This document shows positions 1-23,083 of a DNA stretch of 64,000 nucleotides, in pieces (the stretch's first letter is position 1; each line of letters begins with the position of its first letter). Origin of the DNA: a virus (Duplodnaviria > Heunggongvirae > Uroviricota > Caudoviricetes); the IMG/VR virus record IMGVR_UViG_3300029705_000029. One strand, 5' to 3'. Both the position numbers and the translations under genes were made by a program. The notes beneath the pieces are model-generated. The model had not been told where the DNA came from. It made no database searches and saw only the letters and a program-made list of their open reading frames with translations.

Positions 1-104
1 AATATGGTCGCCAGTCTGAAACTTGAATACAGTTCCTTTTTCGAGGCTGTGAAAAAATTTTGCATTCTCCGGTTTCTTAGTGATATTCATGTTGCATTTC
101 CTTT

Positions 105-320
105 CTATAGTACAATCAGTTCACAGTTGAAAGGGATGACTGATTCGTCTGCGTTGAAGCAATGCGTTGTTCCTTCTTCAAGGTTTACTGCATTGTGATA
201 ACTCGTTTGGCATGAGATTAGTGGTATTTTTATAAAATACTCTTCTCCATACTTGAATGTTGCGCCGACCCCAAGGTCTCCAAATTCAATACCACCCAAT
301 GCATTATCAATTATTTTCAT
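105..320 (-). CDS. hypothetical early protein
   Basis: ORF with GGAGGT RBS before ATG at 320; part of a closely packed minus-strand operon. Confidence 0.6.
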   Translation of the reverse strand: MKIIDNALGGIEFGDLGVGATFKYGEEYFIKIPLISCQTSYHNAVNLEEGTTHCFNADESVIPFNCELIVL

Positions 321-334
321 TTCTTTACCTCCAT

Positions 335-535
335 TCACCACGGAAAAATCCATGAATCATATTGTTTGATACTAATTTCACCGTTACGACAAAGCGAGTC
401 AACGAAGATTTCCCATTCGTACTGCACTGCAAGTCTATCTTTCTTGATAGCTTGATGCAAGTTTTCTTTATCTCCGTAGTAAGATTCTACGAAGAGCTGA
501 GTTGCTTCTGCCTTCTTCATTGGACCATAGTCCAT
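335..535 (-). CDS. hypothetical early protein
   Basis: AAGGAG RBS, start MDYGPMKK; abuts neighbours. Confidence 0.6.
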   Translation of the reverse strand: MDYGPMKKAEATQLFVESYYGDKENLHQAIKKDRLAVQYEWEIFVDSLCRNGEISIKQYDSWIFPW

Positions 536-536
536 G

Positions 537-923
537 TTATTCATCTCCTTCGCAAAGCATTCTTGCGGCCTCCTTGAGGACGCATACACATTCGGATGGA
601 CTGTATGTTCTGATGTCCTTGCGCACAAACAAGTTTGCAATACCTACGCGCATTCGCTTGTATTCAAGCACTTTTGTCTTGTTGTCTGCCTTTGGGTGAA
701 ATCCAGATGCTGCATCCCACACTCGAAGTGGAGTGTTATTGAAGTTGATATCTGTTTTGTATTTCTCTTTGAGGTAGTCAAGCTCAAACGGAATGTAATA
801 CTTAACATTATCAAATCCAAGCTTGTCTATTACACGGCGCATGTAATCACGCCATGATATTTCCTGACCTGTGTCAAGATCTCTGTAGTAGGAATCCACA
901 TTTGCAAACTCTTTAAGAGTCAT
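537..923 (-). CDS. hypothetical early protein
   Basis: 128-aa ORF with AAGGAG RBS, in operon. Confidence 0.7.
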   Translation of the reverse strand: MTLKEFANVDSYYRDLDTGQEISWRDYMRRVIDKLGFDNVKYYIPFELDYLKEKYKTDINFNNTPLRVWDAASGFHPKADNKTKVLEYKRMRVGIANLFVRKDIRTYSPSECVCVLKEAARMLCEGDE

Positions 924-925
924 GT

Positions 926-2047
926 TTATTTCTCCTTTCTCTTACTGAATTTCTTGTTGAATGCTTCAATTGCTTCGCGCTGCTCTTCATTGCAAGGAGT
1001 ATTGTATGCCTGGAAAGCCTGCACAATTTCTCCGTTGCGCACTTCAATGGTTACTACACTCTTAGTGGGATTGTCTTTCTTACGCAAGAACAGAATATCA
1101 CAACCACCATTGATTACGCGCTCAATGTAGCTTGCGACGCAATTCTGTTGCTGAACTGCTTCATCCTTGATATCCTGAGTGCAACGAGGATAGAAGAACT
1201 TGTAATCTCCGTGAGTGATTTCATATTCAGGCTTGATTTGCTTTGCAAAGTTCCGTTCGTCGAACTGGTGCTTCAAGCGCTCAAAGTTTCTAGCTGCAAT
1301 CTTGTGAGTGCTCAGGAAGTAACGAGGATATTTTTCAAACTTGTTGCTGATAAGTGACATCATGTTTGCGTAGTCACCAATTTCTCTTACAAGACCGTAT
1401 GTGTTCAGTCCTTCAAGGGTGAGCAAGTAGTCAATGTAGCGCAAAAGTGCCTTGAGGTCGTAGTTGAGGTGGTGAAGCAAACGGCAAGATGCATCATATC
1501 CGTAGTAATCACGAGGAGTGAGCGCATTCAAGATGCCCCAAAGCTCATTGTCAGTTAGAGTTTCAAATTCCATTGAGAAAGCGACAGTGTAGGCGTCCGG
1601 CATTTTCTTGTAGCTGTTAATCAGCTCTCTATTGAGCGATTTATTGTACGTTCTGCACAGCTTCAGAAGTCCCTTGGGCACTTCCTTTAACGGAATGCTA
1701 ATATCCCAATCTGCCTTGAGCCCCGCAATGTAATACTGTTCGTAAGTCTTGTATTCATTTGCGTATTTGAGCAGAGTGCCCAAATTTGTTACACGACTCT
1801 TGCTATTGTAATATCTGTATGTGTGCGGCGTTTTGTGCTGCCATACTTCAATCAAAAATCCACGATATTTTTCATCCGTAAACGAATTGAGAATGTCCAT
1901 GATTTCCATTCCAGCAAGTGCGCTGGTAAGAGTTTTAACAGGATAACCTCCCTTGCCAATGGTTTCACCAGTATTCATGTTGTAGGTTGCACGCTTTCCG
2001 TTCTCGAAATCAAATATGATGAGTTCTTTTTCTTTATAGCACTTCAT
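926..2047 (-). CDS. PcfJ domain protein
   Basis: C-terminal DIKDEAVQQQNCVASY...ILFLRKK...VVTIEVRNGEIVQ matches the PcfJ-like motif; start moved to ATG 2047 behind AAGGAG. Confidence 0.8.
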   Translation of the reverse strand: MKCYKEKELIIFDFENGKRATYNMNTGETIGKGGYPVKTLTSALAGMEIMDILNSFTDEKYRGFLIEVWQHKTPHTYRYYNSKSRVTNLGTLLKYANEYKTYEQYYIAGLKADWDISIPLKEVPKGLLKLCRTYNKSLNRELINSYKKMPDAYTVAFSMEFETLTDNELWGILNALTPRDYYGYDASCRLLHHLNYDLKALLRYIDYLLTLEGLNTYGLVREIGDYANMMSLISNKFEKYPRYFLSTHKIAARNFERLKHQFDERNFAKQIKPEYEITHGDYKFFYPRCTQDIKDEAVQQQNCVASYIERVINGGCDILFLRKKDNPTKSVVTIEVRNGEIVQAFQAYNTPCNEEQREAIEAFNKKFSKRKEK

Positions 2048-2108
2048 GCTGTCATTCTCCTTTGCTAGGGGTGAGGTTTTGCGCCCCACCCCATAGTCGT
2101 TGTTTGCC

Positions 2109-2672
2109 TTATGCGATGTAATTTGCGCCGCAAATAGGACAAATGCTATCTTCATGCGTTACAGGATTTTCAACGAGTTCATCATTGTCAATCCAGTTTC
2201 CGCAATGTTCGCACTTGGTGACAGTTCCCTTTTCCCACAGGTCATCAAGGCACTCTTCGCATACCACATACTCTGCGCCAATTCCCTTGTTGACCACAGT
2301 TGCATATTCCTTGACGATAATCTGACCGCATTCATCGCAGGTAACAACTGCAGGCTTAGGTTCATGTTTCTCTTCAGGCTTCGTTTCATATACAAAGACC
2401 ATGCTGCTCAGGATTTCAGACTTGTTGCTCCAATTGCGCTGCATTTCCTTGATGGTTTCCGTTACGTCAAAATTTCCATCAATCTGCACATTGGCATCTA
2501 CTTCATAAAGGTCATATTCCTTGTAGGTCGTGTTTCCATCACAGGATGCCATGAAACTGCCGCTTCGCAGTCCAAGAGTTTTCGCAAACTCCATGAGTTC
2601 TCGCTTGCAAATCATTTCCGCAGTGTTGGTGCTGATTGCCTTGACCGTGAGGATGATGTTCAGAGTCTTCAT
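2109..2672 (-). CDS. Zn-finger protein (four CxxC pairs)
   Basis: CDEC, CEEC, CEHC, CPIC in the C-terminal half; RBS present. Confidence 0.7.
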   Translation of the reverse strand: MKTLNIILTVKAISTNTAEMICKRELMEFAKTLGLRSGSFMASCDGNTTYKEYDLYEVDANVQIDGNFDVTETIKEMQRNWSNKSEILSSMVFVYETKPEEKHEPKPAVVTCDECGQIIVKEYATVVNKGIGAEYVVCEECLDDLWEKGTVTKCEHCGNWIDNDELVENPVTHEDSICPICGANYIA

Positions 2673-2720
2673 GATGTCATTTCTCCTTTTGATGTTGTGT
2701 ATTATTAACAGACTGTGCTG

Positions 2721-2924
2721 TTAATCTCCCTTGCAATTAGAACAGTATACATTTCCCTCGTCGTCAATGAATGCACTGGGCAGCGCCATAGTCATAGTGC
2801 AACAGCTGCATTCCACAACCAGAGGCAAACCACGCTTATGAAACCAAGTTCCGTCAGTCATTCCCTTGGGCATTTCTTCGTTGTAGTTGTCTTTGAGCCA
2901 CTTAGCAAAGGATTTCATTTGCAT
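2721..2924 (-). CDS. small Cys-rich hypothetical protein
   Basis: CSCC...CSNC; start overlaps upstream stop. Confidence 0.6.
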   Translation of the reverse strand: MQMKSFAKWLKDNYNEEMPKGMTDGTWFHKRGLPLVVECSCCTMTMALPSAFIDDEGNVYCSNCKGD

Positions 2925-3259
2925 TATCTCCCTTCTACATGCTGCATGAGCTTTTCCATATTGAACTGGAATTCGGGATATACACAGAAACCACTTGCCT
3001 TGAGGTTTCCAGTGGGATGGCCAATTTCGTTTTCACAAAGCCATTCAATGATTTCGTTTCCATTGTTGTTGGTATCAATGAATGCACAGTTCGGTTCACA
3101 TTTAACACCGAGATTCACAGTGAGATTCTGCCAAGGCTCAGGATATCCTTCTTCGTGAGTGATGAGACCCACATAAAGATTTCCGTTTTCGAGGTAAGTG
3201 TCAATGTCAAAGGTCATAGGATGTTTCTTTCCGTATTTGTTAAGGATGATTGCTTTCAT
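2924..3259 (-). CDS. DUF4313 family protein
   Basis: Y.ENGNLYVGL...EPWQNLTVNL...AFIDTNN...SGFCVYP pattern. Confidence 0.75.
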   Translation of the reverse strand: MKAIILNKYGKKHPMTFDIDTYLENGNLYVGLITHEEGYPEPWQNLTVNLGVKCEPNCAFIDTNNNGNEIIEWLCENEIGHPTGNLKASGFCVYPEFQFNMEKLMQHVEGR

Positions 3260-3262
3260 TTT

Positions 3263-3529
3263 TTATTCCTCCCTTTTAGTTTCTGGTTTATCATAGGCAA
3301 GCTCGAAGCTAAATCGACCAACATGCCATTCCCTTAAACTTTCAATTGTGTTGCGTATAATTTCAAGCTCTCCAAAGAAATGTACTGCTTCATCGACAGG
3401 AATGTGGACATGAAAAATTTCGCTTTTCCTTCCTCTGCTGCCTATTTTTACTACTGTAACATTAATGTACGTTGCACCATCAAGAAATCCCATTTCTTCA
3501 AGAGAGTTGATAGTATCTTTCAGTTTCAT
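3263..3529 (-). CDS. hypothetical early protein
   Basis: GAGGT RBS, start MKLKDT. Confidence 0.6.
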   Translation of the reverse strand: MKLKDTINSLEEMGFLDGATYINVTVVKIGSRGRKSEIFHVHIPVDEAVHFFGELEIIRNTIESLREWHVGRFSFELAYDKPETKREE

Positions 3530-3533
3530 ATCG

Positions 3534-3857
3534 TTACCTCTTATTCTTGATTTCCCTTTCGTATTCGTCATCATCAATACGCTTTACCAGAGCAAGGATT
3601 TCCCTCCAGCACATACAGCATGCGACAAAGAATATCAGCTTGTCTTTGAATGTTTCCTTTGCGTTGCCGTTTGCCTTCAGTTCGTCCAGACGCTTCTTGT
3701 GCGCTCTGTACCTCAGCAACTTTTCTCCATCTCGCTTGTCGTGCTGACGCTTAATCTCCGTGCTCACAATGCTTTTCATCAGTTCCAAATCTCCCTTTCC
3801 ACGAATTTCTACATTTCCGTTGCTACGGATAATAGCTACAGTTGCGAGGTTAGTCAT
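3534..3857 (-). CDS. hypothetical early protein
   Basis: ORF in operon, overlaps upstream stop. Confidence 0.6.
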   Translation of the reverse strand: MTNLATVAIIRSNGNVEIRGKGDLELMKSIVSTEIKRQHDKRDGEKLLRYRAHKKRLDELKANGNAKETFKDKLIFFVACCMCWREILALVKRIDDDEYEREIKNKR

Positions 3858-4089
3858 TTTCTTCTCCCTTCAGCCATTTGGCATACAATTCATTCACGTT
3901 GTCGTTGGGAATTACTTCTTTCGCTTCCAGAGTCAGCATGTAACCACCAAAGTAACTGCCGCAAGGACTGTCACACAGGTTTACCTTGCCGTCGTAGTTG
4001 CCGCACAGATAGACCAAGTAAATGAATTCCCTCATTTCGCTTTCGGTCATGCGCTTGATGCGTTCGTACATGGTTTCCATTGCTGTCAT
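3850..4089 (-). CDS. hypothetical early protein
   Basis: AGGGAG RBS. Confidence 0.6.
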   Translation of the reverse strand: MTAMETMYERIKRMTESEMREFIYLVYLCGNYDGKVNLCDSPCGSYFGGYMLTLEAKEVIPNDNVNELYAKWLKGEEND

Positions 4090-4181
4090 CTCCCTTTGTT
4101 GTATTTGAGTTTAGCTGTTAAGCCAAGCCCATAATGAAACCCACAAGTTTGTGCAACCTGTGGGTTTGATATAGGTTTCGC

Positions 4182-4562
4182 TTATTCAATCAAGATATAG
4201 TCGAACCTGTAAAGAATGTCATCATAGTAATCAGTGTAAGGGTTGTATACGCAGTATGTGAGGATTACGTTTCCCTTCTGCGCACCCTCTACGTACTTGT
4301 AGCTGATGTAATTGAATTGCTCTGGCGCATTGAGAATCTTGCCATTTCCGTTGTTATCGGTTACAATGCCAATGATTTTCTCAATGATTAGCTTTCCGTT
4401 GCGGTTTTCAAGCATTTCTGTTGTGAGGTCTGCGCTGTCGATTACTTGTATGATGTTGAGATTATCTGTTATTTCCCTATAGTAATCAACATCTTCCGCA
4501 TGTGCAGTGTAGGTGATTACCATGATGGCGAGTAAGAGTATTGCGGTGAGTTTGCGCTTCAT
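4182..4562 (-). CDS. secreted/exported hypothetical protein
   Basis: Signal peptide MKRKLTAILLLAIMVITYTAHA with an AxA site; GGAGGT RBS. Confidence 0.7.
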   Translation of the reverse strand: MKRKLTAILLLAIMVITYTAHAEDVDYYREITDNLNIIQVIDSADLTTEMLENRNGKLIIEKIIGIVTDNNGNGKILNAPEQFNYISYKYVEGAQKGNVILTYCVYNPYTDYYDDILYRFDYILIE

Positions 4563-4578
4563 TTCCGTTGCACCTCCC

Positions 4579-4764
4579 TTAGTACCATTTGCGTTGCGCT
4601 GCCTTTTTGCGACGCAAGCATTCGTTGAGGTACATGTTGAGTCCGTCAGTTGCCTTGGTGCACACTTTGTTTGCCTTTACTTTTGCCTTGCCATATGCCT
4701 TGTATGCGTCATGTGCAACGGCTCCTGTCATTGCGGCTGCGCCGATCAGTATTATAATGCTCAT
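4579..4764 (-). CDS. small membrane-anchored hypothetical protein
   Basis: Hydrophobic N-terminus, basic C-terminus. Confidence 0.55.
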   Translation of the reverse strand: MSIIILIGAAAMTGAVAHDAYKAYGKAKVKANKVCTKATDGLNMYLNECLRRKKAAQRKWY

Positions 4765-5378
4765 GCTTTTACCTTCCCTTCCAGTTTCATAAGATTCATT
4801 TCTGCTTCATGCAGTTCATTTTCTGTTTCCATCAGACGAGATACACGACGCTGGAGCTCATCGTTTGCCTGCTCAACCAAGCGCTGACGTCTGCACAGTC
4901 TTGCATTGAGCGTTTCAATCAGTTCCCTTGCGTCATTGAGCGACTTGTTGTATGCTTCTTCTGCCTTGCGCTTTGCTTCCCTTTCTGCCTTCCATGCAAG
5001 GTATTCTTCAAGTTCATCGTTGGGAATGGCGTTCTTTGCCTTTTCCTTTTCGAGTTCGTCCATGAGATAGCTTGCGTGCTCCATGAGCAGGTCAGCACAC
5101 TCTTCGGGATGGTGCGCATAAGCCAACTTACACGTTCCGATGAAGCGGATTCTATTTCCGTTCTCGTCACGTTCGTACATTCTGAGAGCAGTCGTTCTTC
5201 TCTTGAGGACGTCAAGTACTGTGTTAATTGATACACCAAAGTACTCTGCTGCATCCGTGCAACTGTTGAAAGTCTTGTGAATGTCGATTGCAATGACGGG
5301 CTTACAACAGGCGCTGTTTCGCTTTCCTGCGCTGGTAAGGGTTGCCTTGTTCTGAACGGTAATGATGGTCTTCTGCAT
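4761..5378 (-). CDS. NUMOD1-like HTH DNA-binding protein with C-terminal coiled coil
   Basis: KPVIAIDIHKTFNSCTDAAEYFGVS resembles NUMOD1/IENR1; heptad-rich C-terminus. Confidence 0.6.
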   Translation of the reverse strand: MQKTIITVQNKATLTSAGKRNSACCKPVIAIDIHKTFNSCTDAAEYFGVSINTVLDVLKRRTTALRMYERDENGNRIRFIGTCKLAYAHHPEECADLLMEHASYLMDELEKEKAKNAIPNDELEEYLAWKAEREAKRKAEEAYNKSLNDARELIETLNARLCRRQRLVEQANDELQRRVSRLMETENELHEAEMNLMKLEGKVKA

Positions 5379-5474
5379 GATGTCTACCTTCCTTTCGCTT
5401 TACAAGCGTTATGTCGTGGATATGCTTAGCACTCCATGGGACTCGGTGGCGTGTGTCACTGAGTCCTAGCAATG

Positions 5475-5654
5475 TTATGCAAGTACGAACGTGAGTACGT
5501 CTTTGTGTGCGCTTGCTATGGCACAGTTTTTACAGTTGTTGTGCCTACCTGTCGTGCTGCACCTGTTACAGCTATAGTGTAGTGCTTTCTTTGCTGCATT
5601 TACTGTCCTTGCTTCGTACTGTCGTTCAACACCTCTTTCTTCAAATATTGACAT
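5475..5654 (-). CDS. small Cys-rich hypothetical protein
   Basis: AAGGAGG RBS, start MSIFEERG; CNRC/CKNC. Confidence 0.6.
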   Translation of the reverse strand: MSIFEERGVERQYEARTVNAAKKALHYSCNRCSTTGRHNNCKNCAIASAHKDVLTFVLA

Positions 5655-5677
5655 GGTTGATTCCTCCTTAACTGGGG

Positions 5678-5854
5678 TTATCCCCAATACTGATTTTCCA
5701 AAGCTTCCAGAGCCTTCTTCAGTACCTTCTGCTCCTTGCGAAGACAGTGGTATTCAGGGCTGGTCTTGTTCTTACAAACCAAGAGCTTCTTGCGGTTGTG
5801 CTCAATGGCGCTGTAGAGTTCGTCACGCTTGTCAGTGTATTCGGTCATGAACAT
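5678..5854 (-). CDS. small hypothetical protein (58 aa, below the ORF-track cutoff)
   Basis: AAGGAGG RBS then MFMTEYTDKRDELY...QYWG*. Confidence 0.6.
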   Translation of the reverse strand: MFMTEYTDKRDELYSAIEHNRKKLLVCKNKTSPEYHCLRKEQKVLKKALEALENQYWG

Positions 5855-5930
5855 AATTTATTCCTCCTTCTCTGGACTTATAAGCCCATAATTGGATAGT
5901 CCGACATTAGCCGAACTAGCCTATATAGGT

Positions 5931-6110
5931 TTACAGAACCCATGCCGTATTGCCATCATTAAGCATAGCCATAATGCCTGGTACATAGTAGTCGTCGCAG
6001 TCCATATACGCAACACGGGCATCCAGGGCGTCATGGATTGAGTCATACTCTTCGAAAGTTCCATGGCGATAGTAGACACGATACTTGACAATCATTCGTG
6101 TAGCACCCAT
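5931..6110 (-). CDS. small hypothetical protein (59 aa, below the ORF-track cutoff)
   Basis: AGGAGGT RBS then MGATRMIVKYRVYY...AWVL*. Confidence 0.55.
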   Translation of the reverse strand: MGATRMIVKYRVYYRHGTFEEYDSIHDALDARVAYMDCDDYYVPGIMAMLNDGNTAWVL

Positions 6111-6127
6111 ATAAACACCTCCTGAGT

Positions 6128-6271
6128 TTATTCATACCTATCGGTCTGCCCCATGAATTCGATGTACGTATAGCCATCGGCATAATAGGGCTTCAGATTG
6201 CACATGATGAAACGGTACTCTGCGAACATCAGAGCGAGAACGAGCAGAGTGATTGCGATAAACTTCTTCAT
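6128..6271 (-). CDS. small membrane/secreted protein (47 aa)
   Basis: MKKFIAITLLVLALMFA..., GAGGT RBS. Confidence 0.5.
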   Translation of the reverse strand: MKKFIAITLLVLALMFAEYRFIMCNLKPYYADGYTYIEFMGQTDRYE

Positions 6272-6558
6272 GATACTACCTCATCAAATTTCATACCAAG
6301 ATAGGCTTCTACCAGCGCAGGGTCTACCATAGCAAGCTTACAGAATGTGCGCATGGCTTGAGGTTTTGGTTCGTGCCAACCAAAGAAGTCATAGTCTATG
6401 AGCATGTTGGACAGATATTCTACGAACTTATCAAAGTCGGGTTCGTCGTTGTGGACTTCTTGCGCTGCCCAGTACGCTCCACCCATTACGGCTACTGCAT
6501 TGTCGTGCTTGTCCTCTAATGCAAGAATATTGCGCTGGATGATGCTAGGGTTGAACAT
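6268..6558 (-). CDS. hypothetical early protein
   Basis: AGGAGGT RBS, start MFNPSII. Confidence 0.65.
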   Translation of the reverse strand: MFNPSIIQRNILALEDKHDNAVAVMGGAYWAAQEVHNDEPDFDKFVEYLSNMLIDYDFFGWHEPKPQAMRTFCKLAMVDPALVEAYLGMKFDEVVS

Positions 6559-6560
6559 GA

Positions 6561-6809
6561 TTATCTCACCTCCTGTTCTATACATGACACATAGATATCT
6601 AGATTGCCGGACTGGTAGTTAAACTCCAGGTCATCCATCTCACGGATATCAGCTTGGCTAATATTGTGGTAATGTCCTCGTGCCATGCTAATTATTGCGG
6701 ATATGGCTACGCTTTTAGCCTTGTCCCTAGTTGCATAAACTCCATGCAAACTATTGGACTGGTGTCCTTGAATAATAGAATCACTGATAACAACATAAAC
6801 TTTTGACAT
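6561..6809 (-). CDS. hypothetical early protein
   Basis: AGGAG RBS; KVYVV...LHGVYATRDKA pattern common in small phage proteins. Confidence 0.65.
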   Translation of the reverse strand: MSKVYVVISDSIIQGHQSNSLHGVYATRDKAKSVAISAIISMARGHYHNISQADIREMDDLEFNYQSGNLDIYVSCIEQEVR

Positions 6810-7018
6810 AATACATCACTCCTATGGTTAGATTATTTATGTCGTTACCTATGATGTCTGTGGTGTGGGTCTCAGACCATGCCATAACACCACATATGGC
6901 AGGAATGTCTGGAGCTAATCCCAGACTAAGCAACTCTAGGTGATGCCCGAAGGCATTGGAAAAGAGCCTGTTTAGGGCACAGACTCTTTAGGAAGCCCAC
7001 TAATTTTGTATTGTTGGA

Positions 7019-7852
7019 TTACTTTGCTTCAGCTTCAACCTTCTTAGCTTCTTTAATCTTCTTGTCCTGCTTTCTGCCGCCCTGAATCTGTGCATCCTCC
7101 TTCTCCAGCTGTTCATCGGTCATGGAGTTACGTGCGCCCAGCAGGTCTGCCATTGCATCTTCAATGTCCTTACGGGTAGAGTCGGGTGCATGCTTCAAGT
7201 CCTTACCTCTGGTGTTGGTCATAGGATTCTTGTAGTCCTTGTAGCACTGCCATGCTTCCTTGCCAATGGCTTTCTTCACTTCCTTGAGTCTTTCCAGTTC
7301 GGCATTGAGAACATTCAGCTGAAGGTTGGTGTGGTTCTGGTCAACGGATGCCACAAAGAACTTGATAATGGCATTGTAGTAGTCCTGCGTATCTGCGCTG
7401 AAGTATTCAGTCTGCATGGTTGCAGAGTCTACAGCCTTGGGGAACAGCACGGACTCGGGATTGTTAATGTCTGCACCAGACACATAGCATGCCCATTCAA
7501 TAGCCTTCTTGAAAGTGCGTTCCTCCTTCTCTGCGTCACGGTACTTCTTGGACTTGATAACCTTGTAGGGAATTACCCTAAAGAACTGGGCACAGTATGC
7601 GTCAAGGGACAGAATGCGAGTGTCACATCCTACAAAGGTGAACAGTCTGTGCAGTGCAGAACGGAACTCTGCAAAGGTGCCGGACTCAGTGGGGGACAAG
7701 TACTTATAGGTAGTGCTTGCAATGTCGTCACAGATAGACAGATAGGTTGCCCATTCTGCCTTAGTAAATTCTTCCTTGTCAAGCTGTTCCATGATGGAAC
7801 GGTTGTCAATCATCATTTCGCCGTATTCATTGTAATTGGTATGAGTTGCCAT
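7019..7852 (-). CDS. first gene of the early operon, unknown function (277 aa)
   Basis: AGGAGGT RBS and strongly biased codons. Confidence 0.8.
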   Translation of the reverse strand: MATHTNYNEYGEMMIDNRSIMEQLDKEEFTKAEWATYLSICDDIASTTYKYLSPTESGTFAEFRSALHRLFTFVGCDTRILSLDAYCAQFFRVIPYKVIKSKKYRDAEKEERTFKKAIEWACYVSGADINNPESVLFPKAVDSATMQTEYFSADTQDYYNAIIKFFVASVDQNHTNLQLNVLNAELERLKEVKKAIGKEAWQCYKDYKNPMTNTRGKDLKHAPDSTRKDIEDAMADLLGARNSMTDEQLEKEDAQIQGGRKQDKKIKEAKKVEAEAK

Positions 7853-7864
7853 AGTATTACCTCC

Positions 7865-8451
7865 TGTGCGGGTTTACCGCTTATTATTGTTAGCCCATGT
7901 GGACTACTTACGACACACAATGATATACTATGTGTCCTAAGTAACCCACACGACATACTATCATAGTCCTTTGGAAGGGACTCTATTAAATCTTGATTGA
8001 TAGTATTGTGGGATTACTTGTCTATCAAAATATATACGGATACCGCTTTATATTCATAGACTCTACCGCCAGTTTATTCACACTCATGCCCCAATATTAT
8101 CCTATGGGGACTACTTCCTTTCACCTAAGTAGTATCTAAACATTCGGTTGGTCTGTGCTATGGATTAGAACCATACGATACACAGGCATTTAGGGTATTT
8201 TGTACTTGCGCCGTGTCATAGTTGCGAATGGGCAGACCTATGACATATGCGAATGAGCCAGCGTTTTCCTACTTTATGTGCCGTCACTCCTGTAAAGACT
8301 TGCAAAGGGTACTTGTTTTCGATTCATGCACATTGCTGTGGTAGATATATAGTTTTCAAAGAGCGAAAGTTGTATTGCGTCTAGGCTGTGGGCTATGGCT
8401 TGCGCCTACTGTAGGGCTTGCGCCCTGTGTCGTTGCCCTGTCGCTTTCGAC
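7865..8451 (-). ncRNA. long structured 5' leader of the early operon (or a separate ncRNA)
   Basis: No credible ORF; a continuous chain of hairpins on the minus strand between the promoter and the RBS. Confidence 0.5.
8351..8364 (-). promoter_or_regulatory. boxA antitermination element (Firmicutes rrn type)
   Basis: Minus strand GCTCTTTGAAAACT about 90 nt after the predicted TSS, preceded by GCAA-tetraloop hairpins. Confidence 0.6.
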
Positions 8452-8457
8452 ATGCTT

Positions 8458-8466
8458 ATTATAGCA
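8458..8466 (-). promoter_or_regulatory. sigma-A extended -10 promoter of the early operon
   Basis: TGcTATAAT on the minus strand; no good -35. Confidence 0.6.
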
Positions 8467-9104
8467 CAATTTTCACGACAAATATGTATTTGTTTTGATG
8501 TGTGTATTTATACAAAAATCCTGCATAAATTGCATAGGGGAGCATAAAACTACAGCTTTTTTGCATAAAAAGTGTATAAAGGAAAGGTGGTTTATTTACA
8601 CACTGACTGCAAAATACGCCATATATGTACACATATTCAGATATTGGCATGTCATCAGCGCATCCCTAAAACCACCCCATTATAATTAGCCAACCGCATG
8701 CGCACTTATTGATATTGCAACACCTCCAAATCATCAATGATCGCATCTTTATTTAAATTTTTTATTGTTTAATCCAACAACGAATCATTATCGTTTTTAC
8801 ACCTATTTTTTAAAAACACCTCGTTTATCGATAAACCGCAAATAAATCATTATTGCTTTCCATCAGTTTTCGCCCCGTAAAACAACCGCTTAACAAAGCA
8901 TAAATAAAACTACCATTAAACAGCAGCACTAAAAACCAACTAACAATTCATTGCGTTTTTTAAAAATTTCAAATCACCACTCATAAAAAACAAACCCCAA
9001 AAATCACTTAAAACATTTTCAAAATTTAAACCGACCCGCAAAACCCTCAATAAATCATTACCACTTTCACAGCAACACCACCCGGGGCACCTTCAAACTA
9101 CCTC

Positions 9105-9134
9105 TTGACAAACCATTCTTACGCATGCTATACT
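9105..9134 (+). promoter_or_regulatory. sigma-A promoter
   Basis: TTGACA-18 bp-TATACT with TG extension. Confidence 0.7.
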
Positions 9135-9170
9135 CTATCACACAATACAAAATTAATGGAGGTTATATGC

Positions 9171-9530
9171 ATGCAGCAATATAAGCACACTCCTTTTGAT
9201 GAAGAGACCCTCGAAGCAATGATCCAATACAATACAAATAATCCATCCAAAAATCACTTCAGTTTAATTGATGCACGAATTATAAGTCTTATTCACTCAT
9301 ATTCCTATTCCGAAATGCTATTTTTTGCATCAAACAAGTACCTTGCAGAAAGATGTCTCACCTCATCCCCAACAGTACAAAAGTCAATTAATAAACTGCT
9401 AGATCACAATTTTATTACAAAAAAAGTAGCATGTATTAATGGACGCAAACAGCGCATACTATCTTATAACGAACATGCCGTAGACCAATTCAAAAAGGAA
9501 ATGTTGTTGGCTGCGCCGCAGGCACCATAA
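9171..9530 (+). CDS. winged-HTH protein, probable minimal replication initiator/origin-binding protein
   Basis: FFASNKYLAERCLTSSPTVQKSINKLLDHNFI resembles phage Rep N-terminal HTH_36; GGAGGT RBS; iterons follow. Confidence 0.65.
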   Translation: MQQYKHTPFDEETLEAMIQYNTNNPSKNHFSLIDARIISLIHSYSYSEMLFFASNKYLAERCLTSSPTVQKSINKLLDHNFITKKVACINGRKQRILSYNEHAVDQFKKEMLLAAPQAP

Positions 9531-9782
9531 TAAAGATTTTTTATTTTACTACCCCGACCATAATAAAGAATCTTTACTGACCATAATAAAGCAGCTTTAC
9601 TATATTACATTAGTATTATTACATTAGAATATTATTACATTAGATTAGCGTAAAAATACTCGTGCCTCGTATTTTTCCTTTACTCGTTAAATGCTTACGC
9701 ATTTAACTCGTAAATATTTATTATTTATTTTATTTATTATTATATATAATAATATAATATATAATATATATAATATAATAAA
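9524..9782. repeat. putative replication origin: iterons, inverted repeats and AT-rich tract
   Basis: ACCATAATAAAG x3 (9524, 9557, 9580), TATTACATTAG x3 (9603, 9617, 9633), IR GTTAAATGC/GCATTTAAC, then about 70 bp of pure A/T. Confidence 0.65.
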
Positions 9783-9819
9783 CAAACCATAATATACTCA
9801 TTATACTATGCTTTTCCTA

Positions 9820-9848
9820 TTGACATTTCCAGCATTTGGTGCTATACT
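9820..9848 (+). promoter_or_regulatory. sigma-A promoter
   Basis: TTGACA-17 bp-TATACT with TG extension. Confidence 0.8.
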
Positions 9849-9883
9849 ATTAACAGTACAAAATTAATGGAGCGTGAAACCGC

Positions 9884-10069
9884 ATGAAGATCCTAAAACA
9901 CGGCAATGTTCCAGAGCGCACTTTCACATGTGACATATGTGGATGTGAGTTCATTGCAAGTTTTAGTGAATACACTCACACTCGACTATATGACTATAAA
10001 ACGAATCGCACATTCATGGAGATATTTGAATCACAATGTCCATGCTGCGGAACTACGGTGCAAGGTTAG
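9884..10069 (+). CDS. small Zn-ribbon protein
   Basis: MKILKHG...FTCDICGCEF...CPCCG. Confidence 0.7.
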   Translation: MKILKHGNVPERTFTCDICGCEFIASFSEYTHTRLYDYKTNRTFMEIFESQCPCCGTTVQG

Positions 10070-10090
10070 TGGGGGGGGGTACTTTCAACT

Positions 10091-10375
10091 ATGAATCTAA
10101 AACCAATTAACTGTCCTGCATGTGGCGAGCATGCAGAAATTATTGGCGAAGGTGTTGCTAAAGCAATATATGATGAGCATGGCAACAAAACAGAAATGCA
10201 CTTTACTGAGTTTGATGGATATACCGTTCAGTGTTCAAATTGTTTTGAACAAACAGTGCTTTTCAACACCATAGAAGAGGCCGTTCAAAATTGGAACGAC
10301 TTATCTTCACACGACGATACAATTGACCAATTGCTTAAGGAGTGTATTTATGAGAGATATCCTATTTCGAGGTAA
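10091..10375 (+). CDS. Lar-like restriction alleviation Zn-finger protein
   Basis: LKPINCPACG...VQCSNC...EEAVQNWN matches the Lar family pattern. Confidence 0.6.
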   Translation: MNLKPINCPACGEHAEIIGEGVAKAIYDEHGNKTEMHFTEFDGYTVQCSNCFEQTVLFNTIEEAVQNWNDLSSHDDTIDQLLKECIYERYPISR

Positions 10376-10949
10376 GCGCCTAGATAATGGCGAATGGGTA
10401 TATGGGGGCTACTTCAAACACGATAAAGTAAAAGTATGCTTTACGAGTGATGACCCGCATACAAAGCACTGCATTATTAGTGACGGTTCTTGTGATTGGG
10501 GATTTGAACCGCCGCTGGAATATTGCGAAGTAGATCCTAAAACTGTAGGTCAATTTACTGGAATGAATGATTTTGTAATGGCACATGAATTGAGACACCC
10601 TATTTTTGAAGGTGACATTATGGAACTATGGAGTCGTCGCAGAATAGGGGCAGACGGGTATTGGACAGTGAAAAGCCAATATGATGGTGATTGCATAGTA
10701 CGTGCGGTTGTAGTGTTTAAGAATGGTGAGTGGAGATTGGATTACGACAATGCGTATAATAATAAAATTGCCGCAGCCAGGGGAAACGAAGTGTACGACA
10801 GAGATGTGTATGCGCACTGGTCACTTTATCATTTGATACCACATTCAAAAAACATAGACATGTTTAGAAAGCTTAACAGCCATCATAAAACAGATGATAT
10901 TAAAATCATCGGAAATATTCACGACAACCCAGAACTCTTGGAGGAATAA
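10350..10949 (+). CDS. YopX family protein
   Basis: MRDILFRGKRLDNGEWVYG...TVGQFTG...IFEGDI...IIGNIHDNPELLE. Confidence 0.9.
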   Translation: MRDILFRGKRLDNGEWVYGGYFKHDKVKVCFTSDDPHTKHCIISDGSCDWGFEPPLEYCEVDPKTVGQFTGMNDFVMAHELRHPIFEGDIMELWSRRRIGADGYWTVKSQYDGDCIVRAVVVFKNGEWRLDYDNAYNNKIAAARGNEVYDRDVYAHWSLYHLIPHSKNIDMFRKLNSHHKTDDIKIIGNIHDNPELLEE

Positions 10950-10952
10950 CAT

Positions 10953-11237
10953 ATGTTTGGCACAGTGCATTTCACAGACGGCCACACAGAGCCAGTAATA
11001 AGTTACAACTTTAACCCAACGGGAACAGAGCTATATTTTACAACAGAGTCTGGCACTTATGGGTTTAAGGAAAATGTTCCATTATCAGAATTTGAACGCG
11101 AATATGAGTACGGATATTCTATCGTGCCATTTTTGACTAAGCTGCACAAGTTTTATAGATATGATTGTTCTATGTGCAGATGGCTTGTAATCAACGACAT
11201 TGAATGCATTGAACTTTTTACGGAGGTGTTACACTAA
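10953..11237 (+). CDS. hypothetical protein
   Basis: GGAGGA RBS, in operon. Confidence 0.6.
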   Translation: MFGTVHFTDGHTEPVISYNFNPTGTELYFTTESGTYGFKENVPLSEFEREYEYGYSIVPFLTKLHKFYRYDCSMCRWLVINDIECIELFTEVLH

Positions 11238-11518
11238 TGGCTGACTTTAAGGAAACTTGCGTCGAATATCTAGACGTAGACTCACACGCAACTTTTTGCT
11301 CGGCGGAGCGCAAATGGATTAATAAGATTATGAAGCTAAAAGAAGCTTATCCTGACGAAGTGGAAATTCAGGAATATCCAGAAAACAATTGCGGTAACAT
11401 TCTAGTACACATTCCAAAGAGCTGGCTCAAGATTGCACCACCACGTCAGGTGAATTTTACAGAAGAACAGCGTGCGGCGGCTGCAGAGAGAATGGCTGCA
11501 GCAAGAGCGTCAAAATGA
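11237..11518 (+). CDS. conserved-looking phage hypothetical protein
   Basis: GGAGGT RBS; C-terminal TEEQRAAAAERM motif. Confidence 0.65.
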   Translation: MADFKETCVEYLDVDSHATFCSAERKWINKIMKLKEAYPDEVEIQEYPENNCGNILVHIPKSWLKIAPPRQVNFTEEQRAAAAERMAAARASK

Positions 11519-11907
11519 TAGACTTGACTATTAGAAAATCGCACTAATTTTGCGTTTTCTTATTGAGTTTGATAAGTTGTAGGGGTATGATATTAAAATC
11601 AATTTTTACGGCGAAAACCTTATAGATAAGAGGTACAAAATGAAAACCGATGTAAACACGCTTCTCAAAGCAATCCATAAAAAGTGCCTTGACTGTTGCG
11701 CAGGTATGTGGAGTGAGCTTGACAAGTGTAAAATCACAAATTGTCCGCTATATAACTACAGAAAATTAAAAGGAGAAACAAAATGACGAAGTATGAAATT
11801 GCACAGCTAATTCGTGCGCTACTTGATGTTGAAGATGTTAGTGAGCTTCCTGATGCGGTTCTAAGCTTGGCTGATATGGTTGAGGATGATGAAGAGGATG
11901 ATTGCGA

Positions 11908-12354
11908 ATGACAATCACTCAGATATTTGGAATAATAATTCTTGTTGTGATATTTTTAATTGTTTTTATGGGAATTCCAATAGTGAACTGGTGGGTAGAT
12001 GGCCATGGATATCCAAAAATTAAATTCTCCGCATTTAAAAAGTTCTATGCCATAAACCAAAACAGATGGGAATTGTATGATGGCCATGTTATGTGTAAAA
12101 GTGATAGCAAATACGGAGGCACATTAGTAATGGACCACTTCAGTTTCGGTGTTATTGATTTTTACAGATATAAACTTTGGCGCAAGAGACGTGATAAGAT
12201 GCTAGAAAATCAAGTGCAGGCCAAATCAATAGAGCGCATGGTCGAATCTGTTAAAAGGGACATCAAAAACATGGAGCTTCTTTCTCAACAAGAAATTAAC
12301 AAGGCCAAAACAAACATGAAATATATTTTTGATAATATAAACGGAGGACATTAA
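11908..12354 (+). CDS. membrane-anchored hypothetical protein
   Basis: N-terminal transmembrane helix IFGIIILVVIFLIVFMGIPIV. Confidence 0.65.
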   Translation: MTITQIFGIIILVVIFLIVFMGIPIVNWWVDGHGYPKIKFSAFKKFYAINQNRWELYDGHVMCKSDSKYGGTLVMDHFSFGVIDFYRYKLWRKRRDKMLENQVQAKSIERMVESVKRDIKNMELLSQQEINKAKTNMKYIFDNINGGH

Positions 12355-17446: not shown

Positions 17447-20245
17447 TTGGCAAAGCAAAAAAAATTACAACAATATGTCTTTAAGATAAACTCTACTCTA
17501 TTGAGAAAAAATGATTGGAACTTAACTTTGCCGCTAAATAGGGCTAGAAATACGACAGGTCTAGTTGTCGCGCTTGCTGATTCTCAGATTTTGTCTTGGA
17601 TCAACGAGCTTAATGGAACTACGGATTATGATATTCAAGCTAAAGAAATAAAGCGCCAAATTAAAGAAATTAAAAAGCAGCCAGTAAGTCGTAACAACAA
17701 AACTAAAATCTCAAATTTGTACAAGCAGTTATATAGACTGCAGTTCAAAGAAGATTACTTGTGTGTCATAATGGACAAGAAATCAGATTATGATCGCGCA
17801 AATCAAGGATTTTATGTTAATGGTATTAAGTATTTGCGACTTTTGTGCACAACAGGCGGTGTAAAAACCTCAACAGTTGTGTATGTGAGCGAAAAGCTAC
17901 ATCCAGAACTCAAAAAGCGTATTGAAAACGGCAAGAACAATGAAGTGCAACTTGTCCCTGCCAAATTGGGCGCATATGAGGCTTTGGCCGCTAGTGGATC
18001 TCTTGAGGTGAGTTGGCCAAAGGACAAATATGCTCCAATCCCTGGTGGTGTAATAGTAATCAAGGACGCGTTTACTGAGTTTTATGCTGATTTGATTAAT
18101 ATTGATGATAGCGACCGCTCACAGGAGCCAATTGTGCAGTTTGAGCCAAATCAATTAGTTAAAAATGACTGCTCTGACGGATGCTCTATGATGCTTCCAT
18201 CTTTGTCTAGGCGCTGGAATGGCGAGCTTAATGATGATTATGAGCACACAATGAGCGGATGCAATCTTCGTTGCGCGTGGACCAAAGGCATGACTTTTAC
18301 TTTTGATTATATAAAGTTTGCAGAAGAGGTTGTCGGTGCATCAGATGATTACCCAGAAAAGTATTTGATAACAGATATTTGGGGACAGCAAAGAGATATT
18401 AGAGACTCTGAGCTGATAATCACTGAAAGCCAGCTTAAACTTTGGAACTGCTATGATTCGTGGGAAGATTTTTACTACAAGTGCCTTGAAAATAAATATA
18501 CTCTTAGAATTGCGAAGACTGCGCCGCATGAAGTGGACAATGTAAGACAGTTAAACTATCAGTTTATACAGTCTTTGAGCCTATCAGATGATGATATTCG
18601 GGAGCTTATAGCACCTACTGTTGATGAAATTAAGGATACGCTTGGCATGGATCCAAGAAAAAGCCTTGTGTATTTGTGCGGCAAAAATCTTAAAGCTGAA
18701 AACATAAAGTACTCTGATGTTGCAGCAAGGGCAATAATGGCAAATACGGATGTTATTAATGACCCATATATTCGTAACAGAATCAAAAAAATGATCAATA
18801 AGCGCATTAGAGAGGCAAAAATTGGAGTGCTTGACGTGCGCGGCAACTTCCAGATTATATCTGGTGACATATATGCGCTATGTGAGAGTATGTTTGGCCT
18901 TGAGGTGCATGGGCTACTTAAGGCAGGTGAAATTTACAGTAAATATTGGAAGGATAATGGCGTTAAGCGTGTAATGTGCGCTAGAGCGCCAATGTCAAAC
19001 GAGCATTCGCTGGTCTCTCAGGATATTTGTTACGACGATAAGGTTGAATATTGGTTCAAATACATGGATACTGTGGCAGTTGTAAACGCTTGGGATACGA
19101 TGCCAATGGCACTTAATGGCTTTGATTTTGATGGAGATTTGCTATTTACTACTGATAGCACTCCATTGCTTAACAATCAGAAGAACTTGCCTGCGCTAAA
19201 TTGCATTCAGTACAAGGCTTCAAAGAAGGTTGTTACCGAAGAAGATGTTATCAAAGCAAATAAAAATGGTTTTGGTAGTAAGATTGGCAGTATTACAAAT
19301 AGAATCACTGCAATAACTTCTTTGATGGCAAATTATGAGCCAGGAAGCGTTGAATATGAAACTTTAAGGTATAGAACTCAGTGCGGACAGGCGCTTCAGC
19401 AAGAAGAAATTGATAAAGCAAAAGGCATTTTGCCAAATCCAATGCCTAAAAGTTGGTATATTTTTAGTGAAAATGTCATAAAAGATGATGATTCTGACGA
19501 GATTAAAGCTCAAAAAACACTCAATCAGAGGCTTTGCGCAGCCAAAAAACCTTACTTTTTCGGCTATAATTACACCACTTTGAAGCAAGAATATGACTCA
19601 TATGTGCGTGATACAGACGATCATGTTCAGAGTATAACGGGCAAAAACATCCGTGATTTGCTTAAAAATGATGGAAAATTGCCCGAAAATGAGCAAAAAA
19701 TACTTGATTTTTATAAAAAGAGGCTCCCTCTTGACATTTCTCCATCAACAATGAATCGAATTTGTTGGGCTATTGAGGATGAGTTCGATGGTGTTGATAT
19801 GTTTTCTAATGTTGATTTTGATTATTCTATTTACAAAAGTGGAATAGAATATTCTGTTGAAGATTATGAGCTTATAAAATCAAAATGCGAGTCATTCAAG
19901 CAGAAAAAACGAGAAATCAATAAGAAAAAATTTGTTGACTGTGAAGTTGAAGACGAAAGTTTCGCTGATCAAATGCAAAAATTGAACTCCGATTTAGAAG
20001 AAGATTGCTTTTCTATCTGTTCCAATGAGCAGGTTTTATGTGAAATTTTGCTTGATATTTGTTACAAAGACGGATTTGATACATGTATCGTGTGGAGTTT
20101 GTGCGGAGATATAATTGTGGAAAAACTTGTGAGTAAATCTGGTGTCTACAGTTATCCAGAGCAGTGCGCTGATGGCGAGTTTAACTTCGGAGGTCTGCAG
20201 TTTGTCATGAAAAATATTGCGGTTGGAGGTGAAGTGGATGGTTAA
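17447..20245 (+). CDS. YonO-like single-subunit DNA-dependent RNA polymerase (double-psi-barrel, RdRP-like fold)
   Basis: Catalytic NGFDFDGD plus RAP, SDG, KGM and QxxIDxAK motifs; lies upstream of a yonK-like late cluster as in SPbeta. Confidence 0.85.
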   Translation: MAKQKKLQQYVFKINSTLLRKNDWNLTLPLNRARNTTGLVVALADSQILSWINELNGTTDYDIQAKEIKRQIKEIKKQPVSRNNKTKISNLYKQLYRLQFKEDYLCVIMDKKSDYDRANQGFYVNGIKYLRLLCTTGGVKTSTVVYVSEKLHPELKKRIENGKNNEVQLVPAKLGAYEALAASGSLEVSWPKDKYAPIPGGVIVIKDAFTEFYADLINIDDSDRSQEPIVQFEPNQLVKNDCSDGCSMMLPSLSRRWNGELNDDYEHTMSGCNLRCAWTKGMTFTFDYIKFAEEVVGASDDYPEKYLITDIWGQQRDIRDSELIITESQLKLWNCYDSWEDFYYKCLENKYTLRIAKTAPHEVDNVRQLNYQFIQSLSLSDDDIRELIAPTVDEIKDTLGMDPRKSLVYLCGKNLKAENIKYSDVAARAIMANTDVINDPYIRNRIKKMINKRIREAKIGVLDVRGNFQIISGDIYALCESMFGLEVHGLLKAGEIYSKYWKDNGVKRVMCARAPMSNEHSLVSQDICYDDKVEYWFKYMDTVAVVNAWDTMPMALNGFDFDGDLLFTTDSTPLLNNQKNLPALNCIQYKASKKVVTEEDVIKANKNGFGSKIGSITNRITAITSLMANYEPGSVEYETLRYRTQCGQALQQEEIDKAKGILPNPMPKSWYIFSENVIKDDDSDEIKAQKTLNQRLCAAKKPYFFGYNYTTLKQEYDSYVRDTDDHVQSITGKNIRDLLKNDGKLPENEQKILDFYKKRLPLDISPSTMNRICWAIEDEFDGVDMFSNVDFDYSIYKSGIEYSVEDYELIKSKCESFKQKKREINKKKFVDCEVEDESFADQMQKLNSDLEEDCFSICSNEQVLCEILLDICYKDGFDTCIVWSLCGDIIVEKLVSKSGVYSYPEQCADGEFNFGGLQFVMKNIAVGGEVDG

Positions 20246-23005: not shown

Positions 23006-23058
23006 CAACACAAAATTAATATTTGGGCTGGTGTATTGTACACCCTGGTCCACCTAGC

Positions 23059-23083
23059 GACGGGGAATTTCCCCGTCATTTTT
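23059..23083 (+). terminator. intrinsic terminator
   Basis: GACGGGGA-loop-TCCCCGTC then ATTTTT. Confidence 0.7.

Follow-up and report, generated by a model that had tools for sequence, protein, structure and literature searches.

An rRNA-type boxA in the early leader of a phage that likely infects Clostridia

Promoter, hairpins and boxA of the phage leader

The window analysed here, a stretch of 64,000 nucleotides (64 kb) of phage DNA, has in an early leader of the phage a boxA of the rRNA type that is, on the evidence of its sequence, real and under selection: the element GCTCTTTGAAAACT (8364-8351, minus strand), which lies at about +95 from the predicted transcription start. The element itself is of a known kind, the boxA of rRNA (rrn) operons; what is apparently new is its placement ahead of phage early protein genes in Bacillota. 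This boxA probably loads Nus factors, and long-range protection of the early transcript may be its main job, a proposal on which we are evenly divided.

The virus record that holds the window (G000; 104,273 bases, 63% complete) encodes a terminase and a portal, and is likely that of a large gut-type phage of Clostridia. A minus-strand early block spans the genome from 42.0 kb to the start of the record, with the boxA leader at its head; the strand switch opposite this leader is marked by a divergent HTH_36 gene (9171..9530, plus strand) with its own promoter (9105-9134). No rRNA or tRNA was found in the 64-kb window, and hence this is not an rRNA operon leader proper. Searches with single proteins or DNA recovered no relatives from IMG/VR or the GenBank phage set, and an alignment scan of metagenome contigs recovered none either. 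The window also encodes a YonO-like phage RNA polymerase (17447..20245, plus strand; 932 aa, with a DFDGD motif), a context of SPbeta-like phages; the tblastn matches of this protein are annotated as yonO or RNA-dependent RNA polymerase in Enterocloster and Bacillus (SPbeta-type) phages. A DUF3800-XI RNA scores at the gathering threshold at 23024-23074 (plus strand).

The promoter, three hairpins and boxA named in the original prediction were all located at their minus-strand positions. Transcription is predicted to initiate from a host-type extended -10 promoter, TGTGCTATAAT (TGTG-C-TATAAT; 8468-8458, minus strand), with a likely start at ~8453-8451. The TRTG motif is a feature of Gram-positive promoters. 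This promoter has no -35 match and is absent from the promoter-scan list; the relatives have a -10 plus a -35-like hexamer at the equivalent place. At the -35 position in the window is an imperfect palindrome, CAAATACATATTTG (8479..8492, no strand assigned), which may serve as an operator or activator site. L158 and L164 also carry this word, CAAATACATATTTG, ahead of the homologous promoter, and its spacing differs among the three phages.

The start-proximal hairpin TGTCG-AAAG-CGACA (8452-8439, minus strand) resembles the 5' hairpin of Clostridia rRNA leaders (host examples are L219, L225, and L200), and a TGTC...GACA start hairpin is also present in L123, L124, L125, L158, and L164. Downstream are two GCAA-tetraloop hairpins located by sequence and fold, AGGGC-GCAA-GCCCT (8426-8413, minus strand) and the 3-bp GGC-GCAA-GCC (8406-8397, minus strand), which had been proposed as boxB-like elements. 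Because their copy number varies from 0 to 3 among leaders (two in the window and L123, three in L124, and none in L125, L155, or L165), they are not a required boxB, and this part of the original prediction is not supported.

The exact word GYTCTTTGAAAAC occurs once in the 64-kb window (with two mismatches allowed, 7 occurrences vs. 5.1 expected), and nothing else in the 104-kb genome comes within one mismatch of it. Two matrices were used for scoring, the first built from 9 hand-chosen host sites, and the second from 20 distinct Clostridia 16S-leader sites. The window boxA ranks 1 of 208,508 genome positions with the 9-site matrix and 2 of 208,512 with the 20-site matrix, consistent with the claim that a near copy of the Clostridia rRNA boxA heads a phage early leader; with the latter matrix, 1 in 3000 shuffles of the first 220 nt of the leader reaches its score. 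Each matrix also gave a second high-scoring site (that of the 20-site matrix being above boxA), which lies inside an ORF and was rejected. In predicted folds, the mean unpaired probability of boxA is 0.60 in the nascent window RNA, and 0.34-0.78 over six leaders.

The host class was sampled via L125, a leader in G001, which is a bin titled uncultured Eubacteriales bacterium and the only bacterial bin with the first gene of the early block (1/399 scored in a class-wide search). The phage contig in G001 has no host flank at the end examined, and its far end is phage-like. The reference set comprised 36 16S leaders of Clostridia (30 found via a 16S start word, three via Rfam, and three via a boxA pattern), 34 of which carry, behind a promoter and short hairpin, a site that agrees with CYTTGAAAAYTRAAYA at 13 or more of 16 positions; the host leaders below 13 of 16 (L223 and L235) were excluded from the matrix. 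The succession of promoter, 5' hairpin, and boxA in the phage is that of these 34 leaders, as had been predicted. The window site matches the rrn boxA of the Clostridia class (sampled via the G001 bin), but its score of 15.5 bits only equals the lowest of the leave-one-out host scores (15.5-26.5). The low score is due to the 3' tail, which is TATATA and not TRAAYA.

In G036, the host boxA strand pairs with the post-16S trailer, and NusB-family matches were found in all four genomes tested. Rho above the cut-off was identified in 173/200 Clostridia genomes, and in 0/4 of the G001 lineage (bin G001 and three relatives). G001, G033, G036, and G041 encode NusB-family genes and have no Rho over the cut-off; an rRNA boxA is present in three of the four, and G036 is a single-contig genome. 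Separately, host boxA-like words occur directly before a strong ribosome-binding site in L181 and L183, and without rRNA in L176; these may be Nus-regulated Clostridia mRNAs.

Twelve phage leaders, recovered by homology to the first gene or to one of its neighbours, were scored for boxA. The neighbouring-gene search yielded 22 loci, with the strand-switch region read in L155, L157, L158, L161, L164, L165, L167, L170, and L171; L154 and L159 duplicate L123 and L124, L156 duplicates L155, L160, L162, and L163 end before the leader, and L166, L168, L169, and L172-L175 were left out of the leader comparison. Eight leaders (window, L123, L124, L125, L155, L158, L164, and L165) precede members of the first-gene family. 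In five of these eight, boxA is significant, its score being reached by 1/3000 shuffles for the window, 1/3000 for L125, 2/3000 for L155, 6/3000 for L123, and 11/3000 for L124; in L165 it is marginal (54/3000), and it is absent from L158 and L164 despite the same first-gene family. L123 and L124 are close relatives, and therefore the positives amount to four independent ones. The L123 and L124 sites score below the 15.5 bits of the window; L125 has boxA in two copies, and most relatives have a single copy. A score close to that of the window boxA (14.7 vs. 15.5 bits) is also reached by AT-rich sequence ahead of the L164 promoter. BoxA is missing from all four leaders in which a different gene comes first (L157, L167, L170, and L171); the L170 word ACCTGGACAAC, initially taken as boxA, is matched by 389/3000 shuffles and was rejected as not significant.

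By blastn, there is no similarity between the leader of G000 and those of G002 or G458, and boxA is kept in all of them. Conservation across related phages, which had been proposed as a check, is thus borne out: the boxA word outlasts its flanks, since it is retained where blastn aligns nothing of the remaining leader. Pattern scans for the leader motifs gave chance matches or already known loci only.

The early block and the proposed use of host Nus factors

A next promoter was accepted at a match of at least 11/12, or 10/12 with TG. By this measure, the distance from the leader to the next promoter is ~24.9 kb in G000, 22.3 kb in G002, 16.3 kb in G003, 22.1 kb in G458, and 9.7 kb in G462. 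Promoters reaching 11/12 are absent from the first 24.9 kb of the G000 block, all ten of them being confined to its distal 18 kb; in the gap, one 10/12 site and two exact TGnTATAAT words represent possible weaker internal promoters. The boxA-less G459 and G463 have a second promoter ~5 kb in, followed by 17 and 10 kb, respectively, without a near-consensus promoter, and the next promoter of G460 and G461 is at roughly 10 kb. The G459 promoter lies in a stretch that has no counterpart in G002, so the promoter comparison is suggestive and not a clean swap.

RNA polymerase had been proposed to be driven through more than 8 kb of hairpin-rich early genes. The block is longer than that, with ~25 kb lacking a near-consensus promoter, but hairpin terminators as the obstacle are not supported: the first 27 kb contain one terminator-like match, itself a member of a repeated stem, and positions 1-12000 contain 8 terminator-like sites vs. 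9.7 expected. After the first gene there is a hairpin with an 11-bp stem and a short U-tract (6960..6989, minus strand), a weak terminator candidate that is nearly identical in L123 and was not seen in L125.

A repeat search identified an intergenic stem with the outer arms AACCYATA and TATGGGCT around a hairpin, in two copies (5883..5931 and 4126..4177, both minus strand), the second of which is the sole terminator-like match mentioned above. Copies number two in G000, G002, and G003, three in G458, G459, and G463, and one in G001:C3; G460-G462 have none. Every copy precedes a ribosome-binding site and is in the sense orientation; the outer arms are fixed, and the inner hairpin varies freely. 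We regard the stems as candidate RNase III or protein-binding sites, the RNase III role being our interpretation from the precedent of SP82. The stem was also seen in L259, L262, and L272.

Inside the G000 block there are untranslated gaps of 425 and 401 nt, adjoining a reverse transcriptase gene. This gene (G000:C1 25713-26972) is outside the window, in the promoter-poor block, and has homologues in G002, G458, G461, and G463. A self-blast of the early block did not recover a repeat array. Given that intrinsic terminators are scarce and that untranslated gaps are present, the obstacle to be overcome is likely Rho or pausing on untranslated RNA rather than intrinsic termination.

We propose that boxA, transcribed ~95 bases after a host-type promoter, would load host NusB-S10, with NusA and NusG, onto the host RNA polymerase; such Nus loading is likely, and the loaded polymerase would then cross 500 untranslated bases and the ~25-kb promoter-poor block without Rho-dependent termination. 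The 5' hairpin would likely take the role of the rRNA-leader hairpin, the GCAA hairpins would be optional, and a phage N-like protein would be unnecessary. Of the original proposal that the phage borrows the host rRNA antitermination complex, the layout, the retention of boxA, and the long block are upheld, and the required boxB and the terminators as obstacle are not. Against the necessity of boxA, its boxA-less relatives still have promoter-poor stretches of 10-17 kb; against a role of Rho, the only host lead (G001 and three relatives) shows no Rho over the cut-off in any of the four.

Other features were noted in these early regions. In the boxA-less L157 (5610-7496, minus strand) and L161, a 628-aa Ala/Arg-rich gene heads the same early block. 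The 628-aa gene is followed by a 470-nt non-coding gap with terminator-like hairpins (2798-3271 in the G459 block), and the two may constitute an alternative module. The early region of the related phage L167 (minus strand) contains a HEARO RNA (1269-1480) and a type-P5 twister ribozyme (4625-4678).

The structured leader, the first gene and other readings

The leader had been taken to comprise 116 nt; because the first ORF starts at 7852, it is ~600 nt long. Its untranslated, structured body (7853..8350, minus strand) includes a long-range stem (8345-8336 with 8072-8062) that opens directly after boxA. The first 126 nt fold like shuffled sequences (z -1.08), the full 603-nt leader folds better than shuffles (z -3.2), and all eight long leaders fold beyond shuffles, with z from -3.1 to -11.9 (12 shuffles each). 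A common multi-stem fold is predicted for the window and L125, with 18/93 predicted pairs changed on both sides in this comparison of two sequences. Further downstream is a predicted two-state helix (7898..8019, minus strand), in which segment B (7950-7939) pairs with either the upstream A (8019-8007) or the downstream C (7909-7898): folding of an RNA that stops after B predicts A:B, and folding of the complete leader predicts B:C, for 5/5 leaders (window, L123, L124, L125, and L155). This helix has no U-tract and leaves the ribosome-binding site uncovered. The leader ends with a short hairpin, behind which the first gene has its ribosome-binding site, AGGAGG (7860..7880, minus strand). Rfam covariance models gave no match to the leader at the gathering score, and sub-threshold matches to hairpins only. 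In L158 (~5040-4980) and L164 (~7560-7520), both minus strand, a terminator-like hairpin with a U-tract lies just before the first gene, and there is no boxA there.

This organization raises the possibility that the Nus factors recruited by boxA serve the leader alone, by chaperoning the RNA as it folds during transcription and by helping polymerase over the 500 untranslated bases, in which case the leader would be a functional RNA and the 25-kb gap incidental. The position of the long-range stem, the folding of all eight leaders, the confinement of boxA to long structured leaders (five or six of the eight first-gene-family leaders vs. none of the other four), and the lack of Rho in the G001 lineage are all consistent with this. 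We nevertheless consider it unlikely, as the L158 and L164 leaders are equally structured yet have no boxA, and the promoter gap is longest in the boxA phages.

The first gene (7019..7852, minus strand) encodes a 277-aa protein that belongs to a phage-only family of unknown function and ends in a basic helix; it has 11 homologues (46-75% identity). Within the family, homology is clear for the window, L123, L124, and L125, and remote for L158 (E 1.8e-26) and L164 (1e-22); the first genes of L155 and L165 are related weakly or through L164. The basic character of the C-terminal helix is most pronounced in L155, L158, L164, and L165. The protein gave no significant match in Pfam, PHROG, or PDB, and its predicted structure (pLDDT 85, pTM 0.60) gave none in Atlas, PDB, viral, or wide fold searches, the best being on a helical hairpin (Z 5.7). 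A scan for arginine-rich segments (5 Arg in 14 residues) found no convincing ORF in the 63%-complete genome; the tail of the window's first gene product is Lys-rich and did not pass.

BoxA might instead be accessory to a bipartite phage antiterminator that consists of the leader RNA and the first protein and resembles conAn or lambda N-nut. The first-gene family co-occurs with a leader of at least 600 nt in 8/8 cases and ends in an Arg/Lys-rich helix, the U-tract hairpin of L158 and L164 sits just before the gene, and the genes for N-like proteins and ConAn1 are likewise described as first in their operons in the available text of the sources (PMC11893012; PMC13401043). We regard such an arrangement as improbable, however: the first protein cannot be linked significantly to any antiterminator by sequence or by fold, its tail in the window failed the arginine-rich scan, the GCAA hairpins fail to track the first gene, and the order of elements is unlike both nut (boxA then boxB) and conAn (gene then RNA).

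A further reading, to which we give very little credence, is that the word acts as DNA (as the -35 TTGAAA of a second promoter, or as an operator) or that it is left over from a captured host rRNA promoter. TTGAAA is one mismatch from TTGACA, one extra copy in L155 is followed at 17 nt by a plausible -10, and the 5' end of the leader resembles a host rrn promoter; but there is no -10 at 16-18 nt after the sites of the window, L123, or L124, or after the first site of L125 or L155, and a relic would be expected to decay, whereas the boxA word persists despite turnover of the sequence around it. The least probable reading is a negative boxA, either a decoy drawing NusB-S10 from host rRNA operons or a repression signal of the suhB type, for although suhB and other Escherichia coli genes are repressed via boxA (PMC5725501, in the portion available) and a strong early RNA could conceivably titrate factors, the phage boxA is separated by ~490 nt, rather than 6-50 nt, from the first ribosome-binding site and is single-copy in most relatives.

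To return to the preferred reading, in which boxA loads host Nus factors onto the early polymerase, a more elaborate version can be envisaged, which we consider doubtful: an exchangeable processivity module, of a type new among Gram-positive phages, in which boxA, a switching RNA of 600-900 nt, and the first protein with its basic tail act together on host Nus, with the 25-kb transcript being cut at RNase III-type stems like pre-rRNA.

Known systems and wider occurrence

In Bacillus subtilis, NusB is reported to bind boxA-like RNA (by NMR) and S10, and the rrn consensus AUGAUCUUUGAAA follows a small hairpin; in the accessible part of the same source, the rrn antitermination complex is described as not demonstrated in Gram-positives and untested in B. 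subtilis (PMC13753749). The Bacillota rrn leader, as far as it is described there, resembles the phage leader in its host-type promoter, start hairpin, UCUUUGAAA core, order of elements, and long untranslated RNA that follows (PMC13753749). Unlike in rrn operons, the phage boxA precedes protein genes, lies ~95 nt from the start (vs. 27-69 nt from the -10 in the scored host leaders), has the tail TATATA instead of TRAAYA, and has no stalk-forming complement (best 14/17 pairs in the first 3 kb, within background).

The nut sites of lambda and mEp021 likewise combine, in the text available, a phage early promoter, boxA, GNRA-type hairpins, and a first gene that is a candidate factor (PMC11893012). 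They differ in that the hairpins of our phage are upstream of boxA and dispensable, no conserved boxB follows boxA, the 63%-complete genome has no arginine-rich N-like ORF, and the host is Gram-positive. With conAn/cATT of pLS20-type operons, the shared features, on the parts of these papers available, are a Gram-positive mobile element, a long operon, an alternative-helix leader, and a small first gene (PMC8191782; PMC13401043); conAn RNA comes after its gene, and a terminator closes the leader there, whereas the phage RNA comes before the gene and its helix has no U-tract. Neither boxA nor NusB occurs in the accessible text of the conAn paper (PMC8191782). The gammaproteobacterial boxA before suhB and CRISPR arrays offers, in the excerpts available, a parallel for use outside rRNA without a phage protein (PMC5725501; PMC13753749), but that of suhB concerns a host gene of Proteobacteria, adjoins the ribosome-binding site, and represses (PMC5725501, same portion). 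By analogy only, the RNase III sites of SP82 early mRNA, known here through a citation in the available part of PMC4838370, are also long, imperfect, repeated stems between early genes of a Bacillota phage.

Our literature search, which mostly covered papers outside subscription and no supplements, found no description of an rRNA-type boxA leader in a Bacillota phage. If the proposed role is correct, it would represent an N-independent use of Nus factors by a Bacillota phage, for which the same search found no precedent. According to the accessible text of a 2026 paper, it is open whether Gram-positives have a working rRNA antitermination complex, and what purpose it would have where Rho is dispensable (PMC13753749). 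Relatives with and without boxA that share the downstream block could provide a natural, non-essential test bed for Gram-positive rRNA antitermination.

A wider scan of viral contigs for TATAAT followed after 70-100 nt by GYTCTTTGAAAAC gave 122 loci, 69 of them distinct. In unrelated viral contigs, the full boxA tail is present in 7/15 loci with an upstream promoter vs. 3/54 without (Fisher p 0.0005); among 20 of the wider-scan loci, Rfam identified no rRNA and one tRNA. Promoter and full boxA, with no rRNA nearby, occur in L001, L020, L022, L027, L028, L061, and L087; in L027, a tRNA directly follows boxA. SPbeta and phi3T have no exact TCYTTGAAAAYT, and their one-mismatch counts are 8 and 8 vs. 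6 and 3 in reversed controls. In the cultured Enterocloster phage PMBT24 (L277 48164-48005, minus strand), a promoter, start hairpin, and boxA-like word head a minus-strand block; the word lies at ~+107, scores 14.8 bits (1/1500 shuffles), and contains TTGACA.
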